From Candidatus Magasanikbacteria bacterium RIFCSPHIGHO2_01_FULL_33_34 (lineage in GTDB: Bacteria > Patescibacteriota > Patescibacteriia > Magasanikbacterales > UBA922): 41,112 bases of DNA. The stretch spans positions 1 through 41,112 of the forward strand of contig MFPS01000002.1 in NCBI GenBank assembly GCA_001782825.1, in the 5' to 3' direction. A program made the position numbers and the translations under genes. Of this stretch, positions 13,810-41,112 are shown in pieces (the first letter of the stretch is position 1; each line of letters begins with the position of its first letter). Below the pieces are notes generated by a model that saw only the letters and a list, made by a program, of their open reading frames with translations, had not been told where the DNA came from and did not search any database.

Positions 13810-13843
13810 TAAGTTCTCTAAAAACATAAAGGCTTTATTTAAA

Positions 13844-13961
13844 AAGTCTGATAATTTTCTTTTTTACGGATTTGTTTACCACAACAGGCATCACCCTCGG
13901 AGCCTAGGCGAGAATCCTGCCTGCCGGCAGGCAGGGAGTAAAAAAGAAAATTATCAGACTT
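13844..13961 (+). repeat. Structured intergenic element, copy 1 (perfect 24-bp arms, degenerate core, nested 20-nt palindrome)
   Basis: AAGTCTGATAATTTTCTTTTTTAC / GTAAAAAAGAAAATTATCAGACTT; core CGGATTTG..CCACAACAGGC..CCTCGGAGCC..GCGAGAAT shared with the copies at 19155 and 23425. Confidence 0.85.
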
Positions 13962-14023
13962 AATTAAAATAGACAAATATAAATAATTCTATAATATTTT
14001 AAACAAAAGAATTTAAATAAAAA

Positions 14024-14887
14024 TTAAGTAAGTTCTTGTAACAAACGCTTTAACTCGTCTTTTGATGAATAATGAATAGTTATAGTTCCTTTTTTGCCTT
14101 TCTCTAAAATAACAACTTTTGTACCAAGACGTTCCTCCAGCAATTCCTCTTGTGCAACTACATTTGGATCTCGTCTTACAGAACCTTTTCTAGATTTATC
14201 TGTATTACCATATACCTTCATCTCAACATCACGAACAGTCATCTCTTCACCGATCATACTTCTGAAAACTCGCATTTGTTCTTTTTCATCTTTTAAACTC
14301 AAAAGTGCTCTTGCTTTGCCTGCGTTTATTTTTTTGTCTATCAAAGCTTTTTGAATTTCTTCTGGTAAATCTAATAAACGGATCATATTAGCAATCGTAG
14401 ATCTATTTTTACCAACTTGTTCTGATACTTCTTGCTGAGTCAAATTAAATTCTTCAATCAATCTTTTGTATGCAAAACCTTCTTCAATTGCATTTAAATC
14501 TTGTCTTTGTATATTCTCAATCAAAGCAAGTTCAAGTTTTTCTTGTTTGGTTGCAGAACGAACAATTGCTGGAATTGACACAAGACCAACAATCTGAGAT
14601 GCTCTGAATCTTCTTTCGCCAGCAATCAACTCATAGCCACCATCTGTTTTTTCAGTTACAGTGACAGGTTGCAATATTCCATGCTTTTTTATAGACAAAA
14701 CCAAGTCTTCCAAATCTTCGTGTGAAAAATACTTTCGTGGTTGCTCTATATTTGGAGATATTTCACTAATTGGAATATGCCAAATTCTATTATGATCATT
14801 ATCACTGACATTATTTGTTTCCATTCGGATAGTTTTTCTAATCTTTCCTTGTGGAATCAATGAATTTAATCCTTTTCCTAAAGCCAT
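14024..14887 (-). CDS. parB: Chromosome partitioning protein ParB (Spo0J)
   Basis: ALGKGLNSLI, QPRKYF, LIAGERRFRA, ENIQRQDLN, HTH. Confidence 0.95.
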   Translation of the reverse strand: MALGKGLNSLIPQGKIRKTIRMETNNVSDNDHNRIWHIPISEISPNIEQPRKYFSHEDLEDLVLSIKKHGILQPVTVTEKTDGGYELIAGERRFRASQIVGLVSIPAIVRSATKQEKLELALIENIQRQDLNAIEEGFAYKRLIEEFNLTQQEVSEQVGKNRSTIANMIRLLDLPEEIQKALIDKKINAGKARALLSLKDEKEQMRVFRSMIGEEMTVRDVEMKVYGNTDKSRKGSVRRDPNVVAQEELLEERLGTKVVILEKGKKGTITIHYSSKDELKRLLQELT

Positions 14888-14896
14888 AATCTTATA

Positions 14897-15667
14897 TTAA
14901 TAATTACTATGCTTTTCCAAAATTTCACGCGCCAATCTTTCATAAGCTTTTGCGCCTTTACTCTTTGGATCATAATGTAATATACTCTTTCCAAAACTTG
15001 GTGCTTCTGCAAGACGCACTGTTCTTGGAATTATACTTTTAAAAATTGTATCAGGAAAATATCTATATAATTCATTCATAATATCTTCTGATAATTTTGT
15101 ACGTTTATCAAACATAGTAATAACCGCACCCAATATATTTAAATTAGGTTTTATATGTTCTTGAATAAGCTGAATTGTATTTAATAACTGACCCAATCCC
15201 TCAAGCGCATAATATTCAGCTTGAACTGGAATCAAAAGCTCATCGGCCGCAACTAGACTATTAATTGTTAATAACCCCAATGAAGGCGGGCAGTCAATTA
15301 TAATATAATCATATGCATGACGCACTTCCTCTAACAAATCTGATAATTTAAATTCTCTACGCTCAACATCCACAAGTTCAATATTTGCCCCAGCCAAATT
15401 TGCAGTTGCAGGCACAACTCGTAGTGAAGTATGATCGGTATTAAAAATAACATCATGAAAACGTTTCTGACCTGATAATGCCTCATAAATACCGTGCTTC
15501 AAATTGTCTCTTTGCAGACCTAATCCGCTTGAAGCATTTGCTTGTGGATCCATATCGACCAACAACACAAAACTACCCAAATCTGCCAAATAAGCGGCCA
15601 AGTTCATAGCTGTCGTAGTCTTGCCTACGCCACCTTTTTGATTAACAATAGAGACTATTTTTGTCAT
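14897..15667 (-). CDS. parA: Chromosome partitioning ATPase ParA (Soj)
   Basis: NQKGGVGKTT, DMDPQANAS, DCPPSLGLL, EYYALEG, LAEAPSFG. Confidence 0.96.
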   Translation of the reverse strand: MTKIVSIVNQKGGVGKTTTAMNLAAYLADLGSFVLLVDMDPQANASSGLGLQRDNLKHGIYEALSGQKRFHDVIFNTDHTSLRVVPATANLAGANIELVDVERREFKLSDLLEEVRHAYDYIIIDCPPSLGLLTINSLVAADELLIPVQAEYYALEGLGQLLNTIQLIQEHIKPNLNILGAVITMFDKRTKLSEDIMNELYRYFPDTIFKSIIPRTVRLAEAPSFGKSILHYDPKSKGAKAYERLAREILEKHSNY

Positions 15668-15676
15668 ACTTTATAC

Positions 15677-15718
15677 ATTATACACCAAATTGACATAACT
15701 TACAAAATAGGCTATAAT
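15677..15718. promoter_or_regulatory. Overlapping divergent sigma70 promoters (tRNA-Leu on +, parA on -)
   Basis: +: TTGACA(15690-15695)-17-TATAAT(15713-15718). -: TTGTAA(15705-15700)-17-TATAAT(15682-15677), 9 nt before the parA ATG. Confidence 0.8.
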
Positions 15719-15736
15719 TTATCTTATTATAATAAT

Positions 15737-15821
15737 GCCGATGTGGTGGAATTGGTAGACACGCACGACTCAAAATCGTGTGCCGCAAGGCATGTGGGTT
15801 CGATTCCCACCGTCGGCACCA
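15737..15821 (+). tRNA. tRNA-Leu(CAA)
   Basis: GCCGATG/CGTCGGC acceptor stem, anticodon arm CACGA-CTCAAAA-TCGTG, long variable arm, GGTTCGATTCC, encoded CCA. Confidence 0.97.
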
Positions 15822-15825
15822 AAGT

Positions 15826-16803
15826 ATGACCCTTTTTTACGATATTTTAATATTACTCACAATAATGATGACTGCAACCCCTGCAGTAATTTTACTATAC
15901 CATCGCTACAAAGATACAACTTCATGGGAAAGCAAACATAAAAAATTAAGTGTATTTATTTCCATATTACTACTACTTGGATCTTTTACTGTCATATATG
16001 GATCATTCATTGAGCCAAAATTGCTTGTTACAAATTATCAAGATATTGAAATAATTTTAAATGGAAACAGTATCAATGCCTTAATTGTGAGTGATATCCA
16101 TGTTGGAGATTTTAACCGAAGAAACGAGATTAAAAAAATTGCCAAACACATAGTAAAACTAAACCCTGATATTGTATTTATTGTTGGCGATCATATTCTT
16201 GCTACTCACAAAGAAGATGATAGACTAGATTATCTAGAAGAATTAAAAATAGTGGCTGATAATATACCAACCTATGCTGTGCATGGAAACCATGAATACG
16301 GCATTGGTGGAGCTGATGAAAATATTAACAAAAGGTACAAATTACCAAACAAAAGTATAGAAATAAAAAATATACTTGAAAAAATGGGCATGCACTACCT
16401 AGTCAATGAAACTGAAAAACTAACCATAAATAAAAGTGAATTTCTTTTATTTGGCGGTGACGAATATTTGGCTGATAGATTAGATTTTACAAGCCTAGTT
16501 GATATGCAAAAACAATACCCAGATTTGCCATCAATTGCTCTTATCCACAATCCAGCAGGCACACCTATGGCCAATGAAAATAATGTAGATTTCGTAATAT
16601 CAGGTCACACACATGGTGGCCAAGTAAGACTACCTTTTATAGGCGCAGCTATGAAAATTGAAGTTCCAATACCACTTGAATGGTATCAAGGGTTTAGTCA
16701 ATACAAAAATACTCAACTATTTGTAACAAGTGGTGTAAATGAATCAGGTGGACGAATCAGACTTTTTAACCCACCAGAAGTTGTAATGATGAATATCAAA
16801 TAA
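15826..16803 (+). CDS. Membrane-anchored calcineurin-like metallophosphoesterase (YkuE/YaeI-like)
   Basis: SDIHVG, GD, GNHE, HNP, SGHTHGGQ; two N-terminal TMs; start reassigned to the ATG at 15826 after the tRNA. Confidence 0.88.
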   Translation: MTLFYDILILLTIMMTATPAVILLYHRYKDTTSWESKHKKLSVFISILLLLGSFTVIYGSFIEPKLLVTNYQDIEIILNGNSINALIVSDIHVGDFNRRNEIKKIAKHIVKLNPDIVFIVGDHILATHKEDDRLDYLEELKIVADNIPTYAVHGNHEYGIGGADENINKRYKLPNKSIEIKNILEKMGMHYLVNETEKLTINKSEFLLFGGDEYLADRLDFTSLVDMQKQYPDLPSIALIHNPAGTPMANENNVDFVISGHTHGGQVRLPFIGAAMKIEVPIPLEWYQGFSQYKNTQLFVTSGVNESGGRIRLFNPPEVVMMNIK

Positions 16804-16827
16804 AAAACTGCTTATTAGCAGTTTTTT
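16802..16827. terminator. Bidirectional intrinsic terminator
   Basis: AAAAAACTGCT-TATT-AGCAGTTTTTT between convergent genes. Confidence 0.85.
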
Positions 16828-16838
16828 ATTTTATAATT

Positions 16839-17870
16839 TTATGGCCACTGATAATTTTCAAATACCATATTAGCCAAATCTCGAGACTCTGTAAACCTAT
16901 CTTCATGTTCCTCAGCTCCCAATACTACCACATCAACTACCCTACCATCATTATTCCTTATACTCACGGCAAAACTATAACCAGCCGCATTAGTATACCC
17001 AGTCTTTCCACCCAAAACTTCTGCAAAATCATTATTCACCCAACCCAATAATAACCAATCTGTATTCCACATATGATGTGATTTTTCTCTTTGTTTTGAA
17101 TATAAATTGTATTCAGGAGTTTTAAGAGCCTCTACAATTTTTGTATTTTCTAATGCATTATTTAAAAGTATAACAATATCACTTGCACTAGATTTATTAC
17201 CCTCATCAAGACCAGTTGGTTCTACAAAAGTAGTCTCTGTCATTCCCAATTCCCTAGCTTTTTGATTCATCCGCTCGACAAATGCCACCACTGGCCAATC
17301 TAATGCATTAGCAAGACTTAAAATAGCTTTATTTGATGAACCAACAAGCGCTGAATACCAAAGTTCATCAAGAGTATAAATATCCCCTGCATACATATGT
17401 GTCCCCATTGAATCACTCCCGATCACAGTAGCTTCACTATTCCAGTCCGGATTTTTTTCCAACAAAACTAAGGCGCTCATCAATTTTGTAATACTCGCAA
17501 TCGATCTTTTATCATATTCATTTTTACTATACAAAATAGCCCCACTTTTATGATCTTTGACAATAATACTTTTTGCGCCAAAACTATCCTGTGGCAATAA
17601 TTCACCCACCAAAACTGGTATTTCTGGATTTGGAATACTAACTGGTTCTATTACAATATCTCCTCCAGCCAATGTTGATTCACTATCAGACAAATCTGTC
17701 ATTTTTTCCATAACCAATGAAATTTCATTTAATTCTGAAGAAAATTCTAATTTATTTGTAAAAAATGAAACAGTAAATACAGCTCCGACGGCTAATAAAA
17801 CAGAAATAAATTTCCAAAAAAAACCAATCTTATCTACCGGTTTTTCTGGCCCAAAAAAAGGAGTATTCAT
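16839..17870 (-). CDS. D-alanyl-D-alanine carboxypeptidase / peptidase S11 family
   Basis: SxxK (ASITKLM), SxN (SSN), KTG (GKTGYT); N-terminal TM. Confidence 0.9.
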   Translation of the reverse strand: MNTPFFGPEKPVDKIGFFWKFISVLLAVGAVFTVSFFTNKLEFSSELNEISLVMEKMTDLSDSESTLAGGDIVIEPVSIPNPEIPVLVGELLPQDSFGAKSIIVKDHKSGAILYSKNEYDKRSIASITKLMSALVLLEKNPDWNSEATVIGSDSMGTHMYAGDIYTLDELWYSALVGSSNKAILSLANALDWPVVAFVERMNQKARELGMTETTFVEPTGLDEGNKSSASDIVILLNNALENTKIVEALKTPEYNLYSKQREKSHHMWNTDWLLLGWVNNDFAEVLGGKTGYTNAAGYSFAVSIRNNDGRVVDVVVLGAEEHEDRFTESRDLANMVFENYQWP

Positions 17871-17894
17871 AAACTAAACAAGTATAATAATTAA

Positions 17895-18431
17895 TTATTC
17901 CTTCACTTCAATAATTTTTTCTAAATTGGGATGTTCACTCATTTCAGCATAATCTGGCAATTCTGTAACATTTTTTATGCCAAGATGACGAAGGGCTTCA
18001 AAAGACAGACGATAAACCGGCACAATTTTATCAATATCCTCAGCCTCTTCAATCAACCCTCTCATTAACAAATTTCTAATAATCAAAGCGCAATTAACTC
18101 CTCTAATAAGCTCTAATTCTGGTCTTGTAACTGGTTCTCTATAAGCTATTACAGTCAATGTCTCTAACTGTGCTTTTGTCAGCTCACCAACAATTTCATC
18201 TTTTATAAAACTTTCAATTACATCATGATTTTTAGAATTAGTAGCCATTTGCACACTGTCACCAACTTGCAAAATATTTATACCTGATTCTTCATTGTAT
18301 TTCCCTTGCAAAATTTCAACCGCCTCTTCAATCTCAATAATATTTTTACCAATAGCCTTGGCAATTGCCGACAACTTCAATGGTTTTGAAGCAACAAATA
18401 AAATAGATTCAATTTGAGATTGTAAATTCAT
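17895..18431 (-). CDS. scpB: SMC-Scp complex subunit ScpB
   Basis: IESILFVA, LETLTVIAYREPVTR..IRGVN. Confidence 0.93.
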   Translation of the reverse strand: MNLQSQIESILFVASKPLKLSAIAKAIGKNIIEIEEAVEILQGKYNEESGINILQVGDSVQMATNSKNHDVIESFIKDEIVGELTKAQLETLTVIAYREPVTRPELELIRGVNCALIIRNLLMRGLIEEAEDIDKIVPVYRLSFEALRHLGIKNVTELPDYAEMSEHPNLEKIIEVKE

Positions 18432-18440
18432 AATGATTAT

Positions 18441-19133
18441 TTAAATTCTTGTGATTGCAATATCAGAAAAAGCTGAATCCTGTTTTAAAATCACAGTTTT
18501 TTGCTTTACTAACTCTAATAGTGCCAAAAAGTTGATTATTATTTCTGTTCGATTATTTGAATTATCTAATAATTCAAAAAAATTGACTGATTTATTTTTT
18601 TCCAAAATTAATCTTATTTTATCCAACCTTTCCTTCAAAGATATAGCCCTATCAATACTAGTCTCTGGTAATGATTTTAATGGTTGCAATCTCCTAATTA
18701 ATTTTACCATATTATCATACATGGTATTCTTATCCAAATTTGTTGGGGCAACAAACTCTTCTGACTGTCTTGGTGCTTCAATTCTAAATACACTTTGTTT
18801 GCCATCTATCCATAATTTATCTATTTTTCTACTTGCTTCTACAAAAATCTTATACAACCTTAATTGATCCTCCAAACTCTGACCATCTTCTTCCTCTTGA
18901 TTAAATTGTGGTAATAATAATCTAGATTTTATATATAACAATCTTGTTCCGACCAACAAAAAATCTGCCAATTCCTCTTCTTTATTTTCCTCAAGCTTAT
19001 CCAAATATTGCAAATATTGTTCAGTAATTTCTGCAAGTGAAATCTCAGATATACTCATCTGTTTATCACTAATCAAACTCAACAATAGATCAAGTGGACC
19101 ACTAAATTTTTCTAGCTGTACAGTAGCCTTCAT
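18441..19133 (-). CDS. scpA: Segregation and condensation protein ScpA
   Basis: FSGPLDLLLSLI, YIKSRLLLP, FLALLELVK; start reassigned to the ATG at 19133. Confidence 0.92.
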   Translation of the reverse strand: MKATVQLEKFSGPLDLLLSLISDKQMSISEISLAEITEQYLQYLDKLEENKEEELADFLLVGTRLLYIKSRLLLPQFNQEEEDGQSLEDQLRLYKIFVEASRKIDKLWIDGKQSVFRIEAPRQSEEFVAPTNLDKNTMYDNMVKLIRRLQPLKSLPETSIDRAISLKERLDKIRLILEKNKSVNFFELLDNSNNRTEIIINFLALLELVKQKTVILKQDSAFSDIAITRI

Positions 19134-19154
19134 AATTTTGATGAAAAAAATAAT

Positions 19155-19258
19155 AATTAATGATTGGAGATTATCATGAGCGGATTTGATTGCCACAACA
19201 GGCAATCACCTCGGAACCACAGTGAGAATGAGCGAATGATAATCTCCAATCATTAATT
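19155..19258 (+). repeat. Structured intergenic element, copy 2 (perfect 23-bp arms, 58-nt core)
   Basis: AATTAATGATTGGAGATTATCAT / ATGATAATCTCCAATCATTAATT enclosing GAGCGGATTTGATTGCCACAACAGGCAATCACCTCGGAACCACAGTGAGAATGAGCGA. Confidence 0.9.
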
Positions 19259-19280
19259 CTACTATAAATTATAATTTATA

Positions 19281-21041
19281 CTACTTATTATTACTATCAA
19301 TTTTTATATGTAATTCTTTCAATTGTTTATCATCAACTACAGACGGGCTTCCCATCATCGGTTCTTCTGCTTTTTGATTCTTTGGAAATGGTACTACATT
19401 GCGTATATTATCCTCATTTGTAAGTAACATCACTAAACGCTCAATACCCGGAGCAAAACCACAATGGGGTGGAGCGCCAAATTCAAACGCTCTTATCATA
19501 TGTCCAAATTTAGCATCAACCGCTTTTTTGTCATATCCAGCTACCGCAAATGCTCTATACATTATCTCAGGATCTTTATTGCGCACCGCACCCGAAGAAA
19601 TTTCAAGCCCATTGGCAATAATATCATATTGATCAGCTAATATATTCAAAGGATTTTCATCATTCAAAGCTTCTAAACCACCCATTGGCATAGAAAAAGG
19701 ATTGTGCCCAAAATCAATCTTGCCTGATTCTTCATTCAATTCATACATTGGAAAATCTACCACCCATGCCCAGGCAACCAAATTAGGATCAGACAAATTA
19801 AGCTTCTTTGCAACCAAAGTACGAACAGCGCCAAGGGCTGTACAAGAAATTTTCCAATTGTCTGCAGAAAAAAATACAATACTTCCCTCTTCTGCTTTTA
19901 CAAGATCACGAAGCGATAATAATTCTTGTTCTGAAAAAAACTTTGCAATCGATCCCTCAAATTTACCTTCAACATATTTCATCCAAGCAAGACCTTTAGC
20001 ATGAGCACGTTTTGCCACATCAGTAAATTCTTCATCAATTTCTTTTCGTGTAAATTTGGCCCCACCTGGCACAACCAAAGCTCGGACAAATTCAGCTTCT
20101 GCAAAAACTTTAAATCCAGTTTGTTTGGCCCACTCTGCTACATCTACCATTTTCAAATCATACCTCAAATCAGGTCTGTCCCCACCATAAGTTTCCATTA
20201 CTTCCTTATATGGAATTCTTGGAAAAGGACTTTCTTTTACTTGCTTACCAGCAAACTTGGTCAATTCAATAAATAATGGCTCCATCAATTGAAAAAATTC
20301 ATCTGATGTCATAAAACTAGTTTCAACATCAAGTTGATAAAATTCACCCGGACTTCTATCAGCCCGAGGATCTTCATCACGCATACAAGGTGCGATTTGA
20401 TAATATCTATCCATTCCACCAACCATCAAAAGCTGTTTATATTGTTGTGGAGCTTGAGGAAGCGCATAAAACTTTCCAGGATGCAATCTACTTGGCACAA
20501 GAAAATCACGCGCTCCTTCTGGTGAAGACACTGTCAAAACTGGTGTTGCCAATTCAATAAAACCATTATTATCCATATAATCACGAATAACTTTCAACAT
20601 CTTTGCCCTAAAAATCAAAGTATTTTTTAATTTTTCACGACGAATTTCCAAAAATCTATACTTCAAACGAAGGTCCTCATCTTCCTCTGCCTTGCGCGCA
20701 TCAAAAATTTCAAATGGCATTGCTTTGGCTTTGCTCAATACTTCAACTTCACTCACCAACAACTCAATCTCACCAGTAGACAGTTCTTTATTAATTGATT
20801 TTTTGTCTCGCTTTACAACTGCACCTTTTACTTTAATAATATATTCGTACTTCAAACCCTCAGCCACAGAAAAATCAGCCACCTTATCAGGGTGGAATAC
20901 CACTTGAGTAATACCATATCTATCTCGCAAATCAACAAAAATAACCCCACCTAAATCACGGCGCTTATGAACCCAACCAGATAATACTACTTCTCCCTTA
21001 CTTTTTGCAGATAATTCTCCACATGTGTGTGTTCTATACAT
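19281..21041 (-). CDS. aspS: Aspartate--tRNA ligase (probably discriminating type)
   Basis: MYRTHTCGEL, RRDLGG, PEGARDFLVPSR, ALPQAPQ, GAPPHCG; Leu in RRDL and Lys in KRDKK match discriminating AspRS, consistent with the adjacent asnS. Confidence 0.96.
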   Translation of the reverse strand: MYRTHTCGELSAKSKGEVVLSGWVHKRRDLGGVIFVDLRDRYGITQVVFHPDKVADFSVAEGLKYEYIIKVKGAVVKRDKKSINKELSTGEIELLVSEVEVLSKAKAMPFEIFDARKAEEDEDLRLKYRFLEIRREKLKNTLIFRAKMLKVIRDYMDNNGFIELATPVLTVSSPEGARDFLVPSRLHPGKFYALPQAPQQYKQLLMVGGMDRYYQIAPCMRDEDPRADRSPGEFYQLDVETSFMTSDEFFQLMEPLFIELTKFAGKQVKESPFPRIPYKEVMETYGGDRPDLRYDLKMVDVAEWAKQTGFKVFAEAEFVRALVVPGGAKFTRKEIDEEFTDVAKRAHAKGLAWMKYVEGKFEGSIAKFFSEQELLSLRDLVKAEEGSIVFFSADNWKISCTALGAVRTLVAKKLNLSDPNLVAWAWVVDFPMYELNEESGKIDFGHNPFSMPMGGLEALNDENPLNILADQYDIIANGLEISSGAVRNKDPEIMYRAFAVAGYDKKAVDAKFGHMIRAFEFGAPPHCGFAPGIERLVMLLTNEDNIRNVVPFPKNQKAEEPMMGSPSVVDDKQLKELHIKIDSNNK

Positions 21042-21124
21042 AATTTAAAAAATAAAACCATTAAGCCATTTCAAGCCCTTATAGGAATTATTTTAACATA
21101 AAAGTTAGGTCTTGACAACACACC

Positions 21125-21155
21125 AAAAACCACCACAATATACTGTGATGGTTTT
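21125..21155 (-). terminator. Terminator hairpin after asnS
   Basis: AAAACCACCACA-ATATAC-TGTGATGGTTTT. Confidence 0.6.
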
Positions 21156-21164
21156 AAAATTTAA

Positions 21165-21205
21165 AAATGTTTATATGTTTAAATGTTTGAATGTTTATAT
21201 GTTTA
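21165..21205 (-). repeat. Five 8-nt-period repeats (TAAACATW-like on the mRNA) starting at the asnS stop codon
   Basis: AAATGTTT ATATGTTT AAATGTTT GAATGTTT ATATGTTT A on +. Confidence 0.85.
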
Positions 21206-22492
21206 CGGTCTTACTCTGTTAATCATCCGAGGAAATGGAATAGTCTCACGAATATGATGTACCCCACAAATCCAACCAACCATACGCTCCAATCCTAGAC
21301 CAAAACCAGAGTGTGGTACTGATCCATATTTTCGCAAATCCAAATACCATTGATATTCTGGTCCTGAAAGCCCTTCTTTTTGAATTTCAGCTTTTAATAC
21401 TTCATAATCATCTTCACGCTGTGAACCACCAATCAGCTCTCCTGCGCCTTCAATTCCTATCAAATCATTATTTAATACAATCTCTGGATCAGTCGGGTCA
21501 ACCTTCATATAAAATGGCTTAATCGTTTTTGGCCACTTGTGAATAAATACTGGTACTGGTGAATCCTGTGTCAACATTCCTTCGTCATCATTACCCAAAT
21601 CCTCACCAAATTTAATATCAGATCCCAAATGATTCAACTTTTCAATCGCTTCTTTATAAGTTAACCGAGCAAATGGAAGTGTAAGCATTCTCTCAATCGG
21701 CGCAATATCCCGTTCTAATATTACTAACTCTTCTTTTACATTTTCTAAACATCTTCGTGCAATAAATTTAACCATTGCTTCTTGAATATCCATATTTTCA
21801 TCATGTTCTACATAAGCTGCTTCAGCATCCATCATCCAAAATTCTGTTAAATGTCTTTTTGTTTTACTTTTCTCAGCCCGAAATGTCGGACCAAAATCAA
21901 ATCCACGCCCAACCGACATAATAGCAGCTTCCAAATATAATTGACCTGATTGAGACAAAAATACCTCGCCCTCATCAAAATATTCAATTCCAAATAATGT
22001 AGTTGAACCTTCACAAGCATTTGGGGTTATAATCGGTGTATCAATTTTTACAAAATCTTGCTCATGAAAATAATCATAAATAGCCTGAATCACCTCATCA
22101 CGCACTCTCTGAATTGCCCACTGCTTTTTACTGCGAAGCCAAAGATGACGATTATCCAACAAAAAATCTGGTCCATGCTCTTTTTTGGTAATTGGGTATT
22201 CTTCAGCAATCTGAACAATCTCTACTTTTGAAACTTGCAACTCAAATACACCTTCCTGTTTTGGATGTTTACTAATACTACCAACAACTACCAATGAAGA
22301 TTCTTGAGTCAATTTTTCTACATTATTCCATACCTCTTCGCTCACCCCTGACTTTACTACTACAGCCTGAACAAAACCACTTCCGTCCCGTAGCTCCAAA
22401 AAAGCTATTGAACCAGATGATCGCTTGTTATACAACCAACCCTTAATCTCTACCTCTTGATTAACATATTGTGAAATATTTTTTATAAGCAT
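21203..22492 (-). CDS. asnS: Asparagine--tRNA ligase
   Basis: [58 protein letters not shown]. Confidence 0.96.
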
Positions 22493-22662
22493 ATAAACAT
22501 TTTAACATAAAAACATCTAAACATTACCACTTTTTTATACTTTTAACAAGTAGATAATTAAAGATAAAATCATACACAAAAAAATAACATAAATGCTCGT
22601 ATTTAACTATTTTTTAATAACAAGTATATTTGTATATTTAAATGTCTATATGTTTAAATGTA
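22485..22662. repeat. 8-nt-period inverted-repeat cassette spanning the recO stop to the asnS start
   Basis: Left arm ATAAGCAT ATAAACAT TTTAACAT AAAAACAT CTAAACAT (includes the asnS ATG); right arm ATATTTGT ATATTTAA ATGTCTAT ATGTTTAA ATG (includes the recO stop). Confidence 0.75.
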
Positions 22663-23413
22663 ATTCCCAATCTTCAATCTTCTTCTCACTATGAAACAAG
22701 ACAAATTCATAAATTAACTTATGAAGTTTTTTTTGTTCAACTTCCTCCATAGAAAAATCCTGTATTAGTCTCCAGTCATTTTTAAGCAATGCCTGTAAAT
22801 TTGATACTTCTCTCAAACCACAATCAACAATCTGTTCTCCTATGTGTTTTTTTTCTTCACGACACAAAGGACAAATTATTCCTCCACCAGCAAAATAAAA
22901 ACCAAGTTTTTTATTATTTAACAAATTATCTTTTGCCATTTCTTTATATGTTTTTTCACATATAACACAATAATCAAGTATCGGATAAAAACCAAGCACA
23001 GAAAATAAGTTTATTATGAAAGCATCAGTCAATATATTATTAAATTTATCACTTTTATCAACAAACTTAAGCCAACTTAAAAATAATTCAAATATTCTAC
23101 TATCTACTTCTTCAACTTCAGTCATCTGATCCAAAAAAGAACACAAAAATCCCGCATCCATACTCTTGTCAAAATTTTGTCTAATTTTAGCAAAAAAATT
23201 AATAGGAATTACTTTTGTCAAGTGCGCCACTCCTTTACCTTCTGCTATTTCAATTTGAACGTAAGAAAAAGGCTCCAAATGAGCCGAATTTTTACTTTGT
23301 ATTTTCTTGACACCACGTGCAAATAATTCAACCTTTCCAGACTCTTTGGTATAAAAAGTTATATGTTGATCAAATTCTTTAAAATTTCTACGTGCTAATA
23401 CTATTGCTTCCAT
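22646..23413 (-). CDS. recO: DNA repair protein RecO
   Basis: EAIVLARRNFKEFD..FYTKESGKV..ARGVKK..LEPF; Zn motifs CVIC and CPLC. Confidence 0.9.
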   Translation of the reverse strand: MEAIVLARRNFKEFDQHITFYTKESGKVELFARGVKKIQSKNSAHLEPFSYVQIEIAEGKGVAHLTKVIPINFFAKIRQNFDKSMDAGFLCSFLDQMTEVEEVDSRIFELFLSWLKFVDKSDKFNNILTDAFIINLFSVLGFYPILDYCVICEKTYKEMAKDNLLNNKKLGFYFAGGGIICPLCREEKKHIGEQIVDCGLREVSNLQALLKNDWRLIQDFSMEEVEQKKLHKLIYEFVLFHSEKKIEDWELHLNI

Positions 23414-23424
23414 ATTATATTAAA

Positions 23425-23530
23425 AATAAATCTAATAGGAATTATTATGAGCGGATTTGGTTGCCACAACAGGCAACCACCTCGGAGCCACAGCGAGAAT
23501 GAGCGAATGATAATTCCTATTAGATTTATT
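23425..23530 (+). repeat. Structured intergenic element, copy 3 (24-bp arms with one G-T pair, 58-nt core)
   Basis: AATAAATCTAATAGGAATTATTAT / ATGATAATTCCTATTAGATTTATT enclosing GAGCGGATTTGGTTGCCACAACAGGCAACCACCTCGGAGCCACAGCGAGAATGAGCGA; right arm overlaps the ruvX stop. Confidence 0.9.
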
Positions 23531-23888
23531 GTTTATCCAAATAAGTCTGCATAATCACCATCGCTGATTTCTCGTCGCGACTAACGTCACCACCCATACT
23601 ATCAGCTTGACGAGAACTAAATCTCTCATCAACAAACTCCAATGGTAAATTAGTTCTCTTTTTTAATTCTTCTGCAAATTCATTCACTCGCCTAGTATTA
23701 TCATTTTCTTTTGAATCCAATCCTAGTGGCATACCAAGCACAAGCTTGTCTATCCCTTCTTTATTTATAAGAGTAACCAATTCATCAATATTATTGACAA
23801 TACCATAAGGTAATACAACATCAAGCCCAACTTGAACCCAAGCTAATCCAATTCTTTTTTTACCATAATCAATACCTAACAAGTTCAT
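23526..23888 (-). CDS. ruvX: Pre-16S rRNA nuclease YqgF / RuvX
   Basis: LGIDYGKKRIGLA, LVLGMP, VDERFSS, SAMVIMQTYL. Confidence 0.92.
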   Translation of the reverse strand: MNLLGIDYGKKRIGLAWVQVGLDVVLPYGIVNNIDELVTLINKEGIDKLVLGMPLGLDSKENDNTRRVNEFAEELKKRTNLPLEFVDERFSSRQADSMGGDVSRDEKSAMVIMQTYLDKQ

Positions 23889-40307: not shown

Positions 40308-41112
40308 AGAAAGGAGGTGATCCATCCACAGCTTCCGCTACGGATGCCTTGTTACGACTTTACCCTAATTACTGACCTCACCTTCAACCCTATACAGGGT
40401 CTTCGGGTGTTGCCAACTTTCGTGGTATGACGGGCGGTGAGTACAAGACCCGAGAACGTATTCAACGCGCCGAGCTGATGCACGTTTACTAGCGATTCCA
40501 ACTTCATGAAGGCGAATTTCAGCCTTCAATCCGAACTGAGATTGGTTTTGAGGGATTGGCTACACCTTGCGGCTTCGCTACCCGTTGTACCAACCATTGT
40601 ATCATGTGTGTAGCCCTGGACGTAAGAGCCATGCTGATTTGACGTCGTCCCCACCTTCCTCCTGCTTGCGCAGGCAGTCTTGTGTGTACAATTTAACACA
40701 CAACGAGGGTTGCGCTCGTTACCCCACTTAAGGGTACACCTCACGGCACGAGCTGACGGCAACCATGCAGCACCTATCTAACACCCTCGAAGGAGGCTTC
40801 CCTTTCAGGTAGCTTGCAGTTAGTAGTTGAGCCCAGGTAAGGTTCCCGCGTATCATCGAATTAAACCACATGATCCACCGCTTGTGCGGGTCCCCGTCTA
40901 TTCCTTTGAGTTTTAACCTTGCGGTCGTACTCCCCAGGCGGTGCACTTAACGCGTTAGCTTTTTTAAACGACACTGAAAGGGTCGATACTTCCAATGTCT
41001 AGTGCACATCGTTTACAGCGTGGACTACGGGGGTATCTAATCCCCTTCGCTACCCACGCTTTCGTCCCTGAGTGTCAGGCATGTTCTAGCAAGCTGCCTT
41101 CGCCTTTGGTGT
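40308..41112 (-). rRNA. rrs: 16S rRNA, 3' half (runs off the window)
   Basis: Universal motifs on +: AAGGAGGTGATCC, CCTTGTTACGACTT, GACGGGCGGTGAGTAC, GGGTTGCGCTCG, CCGTCTATTCCTTTGAGTTT, GGACTAC..GGGTATCTAATC. Confidence 0.98.

Follow-up and report, generated by a model that had tools for sequence, protein, structure and literature searches.

The window analysed here is a stretch of 41,112 nucleotides (nt) from the genome of Candidatus Magasanikbacteria bacterium RIFCSPHIGHO2_01_FULL_33_34 (contig MFPS01000002.1), and it contains three copies of a structured repeat: copy 1 at 13844-13961, copy 2 at 19155-19258 and copy 3 at 23425-23530. We propose, with a probability of about 0.6, that all three sites belong to one family of miniature transposable elements with inverted repeats (MITEs), with a nested palindromic build and a cis-acting folded core. 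Their identity as a MITE family is well supported. The original prediction, made from the letters of the window, had placed three structured elements at these positions, and they can be read there in the sequence, all on the + strand. The genome of the window (G000; 1.0 Mb, 33% G+C, 9 contigs) is 99.8% complete.

In minimum-energy folds each copy forms a closing stem of 23-24 base pairs (bp) around a three-way junction, in agreement with the predicted long arms and branched core. Copy 1 (118 nt) folds with -52.1 kcal/mol (z -7.6), copy 2 with -46.9 kcal/mol (z -9.1) and copy 3 with -48.4 kcal/mol (z -11.6), and for none of them did any of 200 shuffled sequences fold as well. The reverse strands of copies 1, 2 and 3 also fold well (z -8.2, -7.8 and -7.6), that of copy 1 slightly better than its forward strand, and therefore fold energy alone cannot pick the strand. 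A 12-mer taken from the core occurs exactly three times in the window, and five times when up to two mismatches are allowed (1.96 expected).

From the outside inwards, the element consists of the arm, a tandem G-A step that is confined to the copies with class A arms (see below), two base pairs, a GG/GA loop, P1, P2, C1-2 and P3. The two pairs above the arm are GC/GC, replaced by AC/GU in class B; P1 is UU/AA, and P2 is a variable hairpin of 7-9 bp in the G000 copies. Copies 2 and 3 show the predicted layout (arm, GA/GA, GC/GC, GG/GA, AUU/AAU, P2, P3), and the compensatory change from A-U to G-C that was noted between their P2 hairpins is real. The last hairpin had been read as CTCG-N9-YGAG, which needs correction: P3 is built from CUC/GAG, a bulge of 3 nt whose last base is A, and an inner helix that varies, its inner pair switching from G-C to A-U in four copies.

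The predicted pairing extends to the whole family. Over the 53 copies found in G000, 90.3% of the cells are paired, compared with 36-48% when the partners are slid, and 19 of 36 pairs have changed on both sides, compared with 9.9 in shuffles (a value reached by 0 of 500 shuffles). In 21 copies from other genomes that were found by the covariance model alone, CUC/GAG and UU/AA are invariant (21 of 21) and GAGAAUGAG is nearly so; both-side changes affect 21 of 28 pairs, and 88% of the cells are paired (31-58% when slid). The original prediction had made covariation among further copies a touchstone of its reading, and both sets display it. G-U (G-T) combinations outnumber A-C combinations by 35 to 14 in the arms of the 53 copies, by 73 to 8 in the copies from other genomes and by 21 to 3 in the model-only set, and the conserved mismatches are purine-purine on the + sense. 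Covarying stems together with the excess of G-U over A-C indicate that one strand folds. As had been suggested from the mismatches of the window copies, this strand is the + sense, as RNA or as single-stranded DNA. Such uneven conservation, in which junction and loop nucleotides do not vary but stems, arms and ends are replaced, speaks for purifying selection on a single strand that folds, as does the excess of G-U.

The fold matches no catalogued RNA among the 4227 models of Rfam 15. At the gathering threshold the window yields only a 16S fragment and a tRNA, and permissive scans (E <=10 for copies 1 and 2, E <=1 for five copies from other phyla) return only weak hairpin look-alikes; the strong Rfam match that the original prediction had named as evidence against itself is absent at both levels. 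The Rfam models for hammerhead, twister, twister-sister, pistol, hatchet and HDV-like ribozymes do not match the element. Three known motifs were considered and dropped: the kink-turn, as no 3-nt bulge adjoins the tandem G-A pairs; a hammerhead-like core, as the order of motifs does not fit and Rfam is negative; and integron attC sites, as the copies are dispersed and not in arrays (no dedicated attC tool was applied).

The family is large. A loose pattern finds 53 copies in G000 and a covariance model built from those finds 54, at a density of about one per 19 kb across all large contigs. None of the 53 copies, each of about 105-200 nt, lies within an open reading frame (ORF). By their arms, 21 copies, including window copies 2 and 3, belong to class A and 18 to class B; the remaining 14, among them copy 1, belong to neither. 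The arms had been thought to differ copy by copy; instead, the differences among the window copies reflect subfamily-specific arms, each common to many copies. In 21 of the 53 copies a perfect 20-nt palindrome, P4, is present between GAGAAU and GAG. It also occurs outside the family at three sites in G000 (C6:150603, C7:7262 and C7:28799), at one of which it is the centre of a different, AT-rich hairpin, so that it could itself be a very small mobile unit. Four copies, all with P4, are chimaeric, their 5' and 3' arms coming from different subfamilies, and at three loci the central hairpin has been lost and the outer parts kept, with different break points; we take both as signs of an unstable hairpin.

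Class B copies reveal the ends of the element. They are conserved over approximately 195 nt and have the ends TGTAAGAAT...ATCTTACA, which form terminal inverted repeats. The flanks of class B copies agree in at least six of seven bases in 9 of 18 copies, compared with 6.2% of cross-pairs, which marks a 7-bp target duplication. The original prediction saw no target duplication, a statement that does not hold at the level of the family. The same kind of ends is found in the copies of a second genome of the genus, G002; a third, G001, does not carry the element. The window region is syntenic in G002 and G001, at an identity of only 65-79% that allows no base-for-base alignment of empty sites. In G002 the spacers at the sites of copies 1 and 2 measure approximately 0 and 35 nt. 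The G001 site syntenic to window position ~13810-14015 (L085) contains a 171-nt spacer of GC-rich palindromic sequence of a different kind. Contigs from four public DNA runs that were placed on the window region end inside copies, and none of them spans an empty site; copies of the family thus break short-read assemblies.

The core is also found far outside the genus. In a collection of species-representative genomes the core pattern occurs in more than 109 stretches, and the covariance model confirmed 67 of the 80 that were fetched; the other 13 are chance matches. The confirmed stretches derive mostly from Nitrospirota (Thermodesulfovibrionales and Nitrospiraceae), and include five loci from Ca. 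Magasanikbacteria, two from Ca. Saccharibacteria and one each from Acidobacteria, Ignavibacteria and Desulfobacteraceae. Two loci binned as Elusimicrobiales and Nitrososphaerales (L103 and L108) resemble the type seen in a Thermodesulfovibrionales metagenome-assembled genome (MAG), G041. Two Nitrospiraceae MAGs have at least 50 and at least 53 model matches (150 candidates scored in each). With a broader model, carriers numbered 10 among 150 further Nitrospirota and 1 among 150 further Patescibacteria. Among 40 relatives of G000 the only carrier is G002; 38 others and the same-genus G001 are without the element. Such a patchy occurrence resembles that of mobile DNA. Viral contigs contain two matches to the pattern, both inside ORFs and neither confirmed by the model.

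In Nitrospirota the element can be linked to a transposon family. G041 carries at least 40 copies of approximately 166 nt that are 91-98% identical (40 of 206 candidates scored), and 225 occurrences of their end motif. The copies have the ends CCCATATT.../...AAGTGGG, and their flanking 4-mers (YTAR) are identical in 8 of 15 cases, compared with 47 of 210 cross-pairs. An insertion sequence (IS) of approximately 1.66 kb in G042, a Nitrospiraceae MAG, has the same termini (~20 nt) as the G041 copies, with CTAA on both sides, and its 448-residue product is an IS1380-family transposase (NF033539, E 1.4e-122; PF13701, E 1.8e-153). The Nitrospirota copies are thus alike to the resident IS in their termini and their 4-bp YTAR-type flanking repeats, whereas the core is absent from this IS and from five other IS loci (covariance model with filters off; best E 0.29 over the six loci), and the copies of G000, a genome in which no such transposase was found, have other termini. 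Because the G042 IS is without the core, the core is not leftover IS sequence. The Nitrospirota elements use IS1380-type ends, and the Magasanikbacteria elements other ends with a 7-bp duplication. The same core across phyla, together with an IS1380-type IS without it, therefore points to one folded module on unrelated transposon ends. For comparison, IS1247 of the IS1380 family is listed with 1672 bp and a 5-bp duplication (PMC3281130, Table 2). One pair of G041 end motifs lies 1.6 kb apart and encloses ordinary small ORFs with no evident transposase among them, as judged without a profile search of these ORFs.

The copies show no consistent orientation relative to genes. Copies 2 and 3 are antisense to their flanking genes, as the original prediction states; over the 53 copies, 21 have the same orientation as the neighbouring ORFs, 21 the opposite, and 6 and 5 are mixed. 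For the copies in other phyla, 25 have the same and 27 the opposite orientation relative to the upstream ORF, and 20 and 35 relative to the downstream ORF. With respect to GC skew, the folding strand is on the negative-skew strand in 51 of 53 copies in G000 and in all nine in G002 (60 of 62). Skew in G000 is very strong (approximately ±0.2 to 0.3 in 10-kb bins), and within any one large contig most bins agree in its sign, with departures in a few bins near contig ends. The positive-skew strand carries the 16S gene and most genes, and by the usual reading of skew and gene bias the negative-skew strand is the leading-strand template.

Profile searches for the enzyme that moves the family gave no match to Y1_Tnp (PF01797), TnpB (including its zinc ribbon) or DDE_Tnp_1 (PF01609) in either G000 or G002. 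No rve domain was found in G000, and in G002 no rve element matches the MITE ends. Reverse transcriptase (PF00078) has no match in G000, which speaks against descent from a group II intron or retron; such genes are present in G002 and G001. An all-against-all comparison of the 909 ORFs of G000 revealed no multi-copy ORF. Because Y1, TnpB, DDE_Tnp_1, rve and multi-copy ORFs are all missing from G000, the mover of the family is probably no longer encoded there, among the transposase families searched. An IS3-like element in G002 (L235, C15) was rejected as its source: the visible ends are unlike the MITE ends, at a locus that is partly masked. This element comprises a 93-residue ORF followed by a 271-residue rve ORF, and the 5' part of the gene that it interrupts is duplicated on both sides. 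The original prediction also asked whether full-length relatives lie beside a nuclease or transposase. Around the 67 confirmed copies, all of them in genomes other than G000, none of 104 flanking ORF pieces matches a transposase family, and the neighbours are ordinary housekeeping genes. Together with the missing Y1 and TnpB, this speaks against IS200/IS605 derivatives (PATE) and against a TnpB guide RNA.

Terminal inverted repeats and target duplications give the family the behaviour of a DDE-type MITE, and we hypothesize that the outer terminal inverted repeats would be recognised by a DDE transposase supplied in trans. Inside them lies the long inner hairpin, with the conserved three-way junction at its tip and the purine-purine internal loops below. 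Mismatches in quasi-palindromes can be corrected by template switching, which can produce compensated changes without selection. In the MITE family, such intrastrand template switching could keep the arms complementary by correcting mismatches in one arm from the opposite arm, and selection for the hairpin may assist this correction. The core would be a cis-acting module that is selected on the element itself and acts as a folded single strand, not as a host gene. In G000 it may matter at the level of DNA, with the better-folding strand tolerated only on the leading-strand template. We infer that the polarity stems from copies in the opposite orientation having been lost by hairpin-driven deletion on the lagging-strand template, or never having been inserted.

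Several points weigh against this interpretation. At window copies 1-3 the ends are unclear and there is no clear target duplication; the duplication statistics rest on the class B and G041 copies, and the 4-bp duplication of G041 has a high background (22%) at a biased target. Neither G000 nor G002 yielded a transposase for the family in searches that covered Y1_Tnp, the TnpB zinc ribbon, DDE_Tnp_1 and rve, and the deletion bias invoked for the polarity is conjecture. The alignments (A2-A4) were fitted to the covariance model, which favours the structure, and the cross-genome core pattern itself forces part of the apparent conservation, from which only the 21 model-found copies are free. Template switching can yield covariation in hairpins without selection, and covariation is for this reason weaker evidence of function than usual. 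Binning may have misplaced some MAG contigs, L103 and L108 for example. Finally, + and - copies alternate at distances of tens of kb on the same contigs of the two Nitrospiraceae MAGs, and polarity therefore belongs to the genus and not to the family. Often they form inverted pairs approximately 170-180 nt apart, in G042 for example at C1:732685-732957, C1:266721-266979 and C2:292810-293061.

The core could alternatively be a functional structured RNA, or a predicted new self-cleaving or self-processing ribozyme, with the MITEs merely spreading copies that, all or in part, are transcribed from promoters in the element ends and act through the sense RNA. The element combines conserved purine mismatches in tandem with a bulged A that never changes and with a compact junction of three helices whose outer hairpins vary, a pattern typical of RNA motifs, and it shows the strong excess of G-U over A-C. 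A TTGTAA-N17-TATAAT-like motif directed into the sense strand is present at the 5' outer end of 9 of 18 class B copies (for example L031, L036, L040), ending 28-29 nt before the core; a weaker mirror motif is found at the 3' end of 4 of 18. However, orientation ignores neighbouring transcription both in G000 and in other phyla, and 60 of the 62 copies in the genus have a sense direction that is head-on to replication, which would be odd for an expressed RNA gene. Between 13600 and 23700, promoter-like sites are not above chance (57, compared with 46.2 +/- 7.1), and no terminator is called at the window copies. Neither copies 1 and 2 nor the five copies from other phyla belong to an Rfam family, known ribozymes included, and we regard a functional RNA as unlikely, if worth keeping in view. 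A core without any function, its conservation mimicked by recent transfer of one MITE between phyla and its covariation arising only from palindrome correction, would suit the patchy distribution, which is typical of transfer, and the compensated changes that template switching can give. We find it doubtful, as almost no likeness is left between lineages in the arms, the termini, P2 and P3 whereas the unpaired and junction nucleotides are fixed, as the asymmetry between G-U and A-C is not a product of template switching, and as the termini belong to different transposon types.

The strict polarity allows two further explanations. One is domestication: in this genus the element may serve, like other strand-skewed motifs, as a polar signal on the chromosome for replication, recombination or segregation, one strand of which is read by a host protein. 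In its favour are the single skew polarity of 60 of 62 copies and a spacing that gives a copy about every 19 kb on all large contigs. Yet it is absent from G001 and the 38 other relatives, G002 has short or empty spacers where copies 1 and 2 would be, there is no polarity in Nitrospiraceae, and copies decay and recombine; a polar signal is therefore quite improbable. Polarity and a strand-specific fold, along with a long hairpin of REPIN-like size, would also be expected of an element of REP/REPIN-like or IS200/IS605 type, moved in the form of single-stranded DNA by a Y1 (HUH) transposase. We give this route very little credence: Y1_Tnp and TnpB are missing from G000 and G002, and Y1_Tnp is matched, weakly, only in G001, which is without the element; terminal inverted repeats and target duplications are present; the Nitrospirota termini are those of an IS1380 DDE element; a conserved centre with variable arms is the reverse of REPINs; and the folding strand coincides with the leading-strand template and not with that of the lagging strand, which is exposed. 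The original prediction of an undescribed non-autonomous element accordingly survives as regards the repeat family and the lack of an Rfam match, and fails as regards the REP/HUH route.

Within the proposed MITE family, the folded core might even be the true unit of selection: a new class of strand-specific nucleic-acid module, catalytic or recruiting a widely conserved host factor, that was transferred between phyla at the centre of unrelated palindromic transposon derivatives (IS1380-type ends in Nitrospirota, TG...CA-type ends in Magasanikbacteria). We put this forward only tentatively and as an improbable case. For this genus, an orientation that ignores transcription and the polarity relative to replication speak rather for DNA as the active form, the style of the motif and the promoter-like ends of class B rather for RNA. 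If the core were the unit of selection, it would set the success of its host transposon derivatives, and in this genus also their polarity with respect to replication.

Bacterial MITEs with structured centres include Correia/NEMIS of Neisseria, BOX and RUP of Streptococcus, ERIC, and bcr1 of the Bacillus cereus group. By description, the family resembles them in being short, non-coding, multi-copy, intergenic and nested, with the potential to form hairpins, and in having inverted-repeat ends, target duplications and a transposase presumed to act in trans. It differs in that the three-way-junction centre is the most conserved part and occurs in at least four phyla on elements with unrelated termini and with different duplication lengths (7 bp and 4 bp), in its variable arms and in its strict replication polarity in one genus. 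Compact multi-helix junctions with conserved purines are likewise found among the ribozymes and small RNAs of Rfam 15, from which the absence of a match sets the family apart. Some classes of self-cleaving ribozymes are carried in many copies by mobile elements. REPINs, as characterised in PMC3116915, are hairpin-forming doublets of REP sequences linked to RAYT genes; they are non-autonomous, approximately 100 nt long and thought to act single-stranded, and form clusters by insertion into or next to existing copies. Our element is similar in hairpin formation, size and lack of autonomy, but no RAYT was found here, target duplications are present and the pattern of conserved and variable parts is inverted. 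Our literature search, mostly at the level of abstracts and with subscription journals and ISfinder outside it, found no description of the element; added here are the cross-phylum core, the link to IS1380 and the duplication statistics.

It is usual to define MITEs by their ends and to regard what lies between as junk. In the present family the reverse applies: ends, arms and duplication length change, and a three-way junction of about 60 nt with fixed unpaired purines persists across phyla, reaching 50 to more than 100 copies per genome. It offers a concrete and testable case of a structured cis-module that possibly controls the spread or survival of mobile DNA. The polarity shared by 60 of 62 copies is a natural test of unequal hairpin tolerance on the two replication templates, an idea of long standing. 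The family also accounts for many of the intergenic 'structured RNA' calls in these genomes.

The three copies in the window differ in their parts, all of which lie on the + strand. In copy 1 the 5' arm of the closing stem (13844-13866, 23 nt) pairs with 13939-13961 in the minimum-energy fold. The core, identified by pattern match and scored at 73.0 bits by the covariance model, occupies 13867-13915 and reads CGGAUUU, hairpin P2, CCUC, bulge, hairpin P3 and GAGAAU. The GA/GA step is absent, and the optional GC-rich perfect palindrome P4 is present (13916-13935, 20 nt, between GAGAAU and GAG), followed by GAG and the 3' arm (13936-13961), as read from sequence and fold. Degraded outer segments that resemble the outer arms of class B give copy 1 a tentative full extent of 13810-14005, an approximate assignment by eye against the class B consensus. 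Copy 2 consists of a 23-nt 5' arm of class A type (19155-19177; sequence, fold and arm class), a core with the purine-rich internal loops GA/GA, GC/GC and GG/GA, P1, P2 and P3 (19178-19235; 92.2 bits), and a 3' arm (19236-19258; sequence and fold). Copy 3 has a 24-nt 5' arm that is a class A variant (23425-23448), a core at 23449-23506 (94.8 bits) and a 3' arm at 23507-23530, with a U-G wobble against the 5' arm; both arms are placed by sequence and fold. The last bases of this 3' arm overlap the stop codon of an ORF on the - strand (23526-23888).

Some features near the copies and elsewhere in the genome are recorded here as separate observations. The listed start of the ORF 18441-19205 (-) is a TTG within copy 2; more likely this ORF begins with the in-frame ATG at 19133, 21 nt outside the copy. 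The tRNA gene at 15737-15818 (+; 82 nt; Rfam, 60.2 bits) has a long variable arm, and in public runs contig depth from other organisms accumulates there. Two contig ends of G000 (C3:~121040-121117 and C6:~151730-151834) share a GC-rich repeat that is unlike the remaining genome. The 3' part of the 16S rRNA gene, at 40310-41112 (-) on the positive-skew strand, runs off the end of the window.

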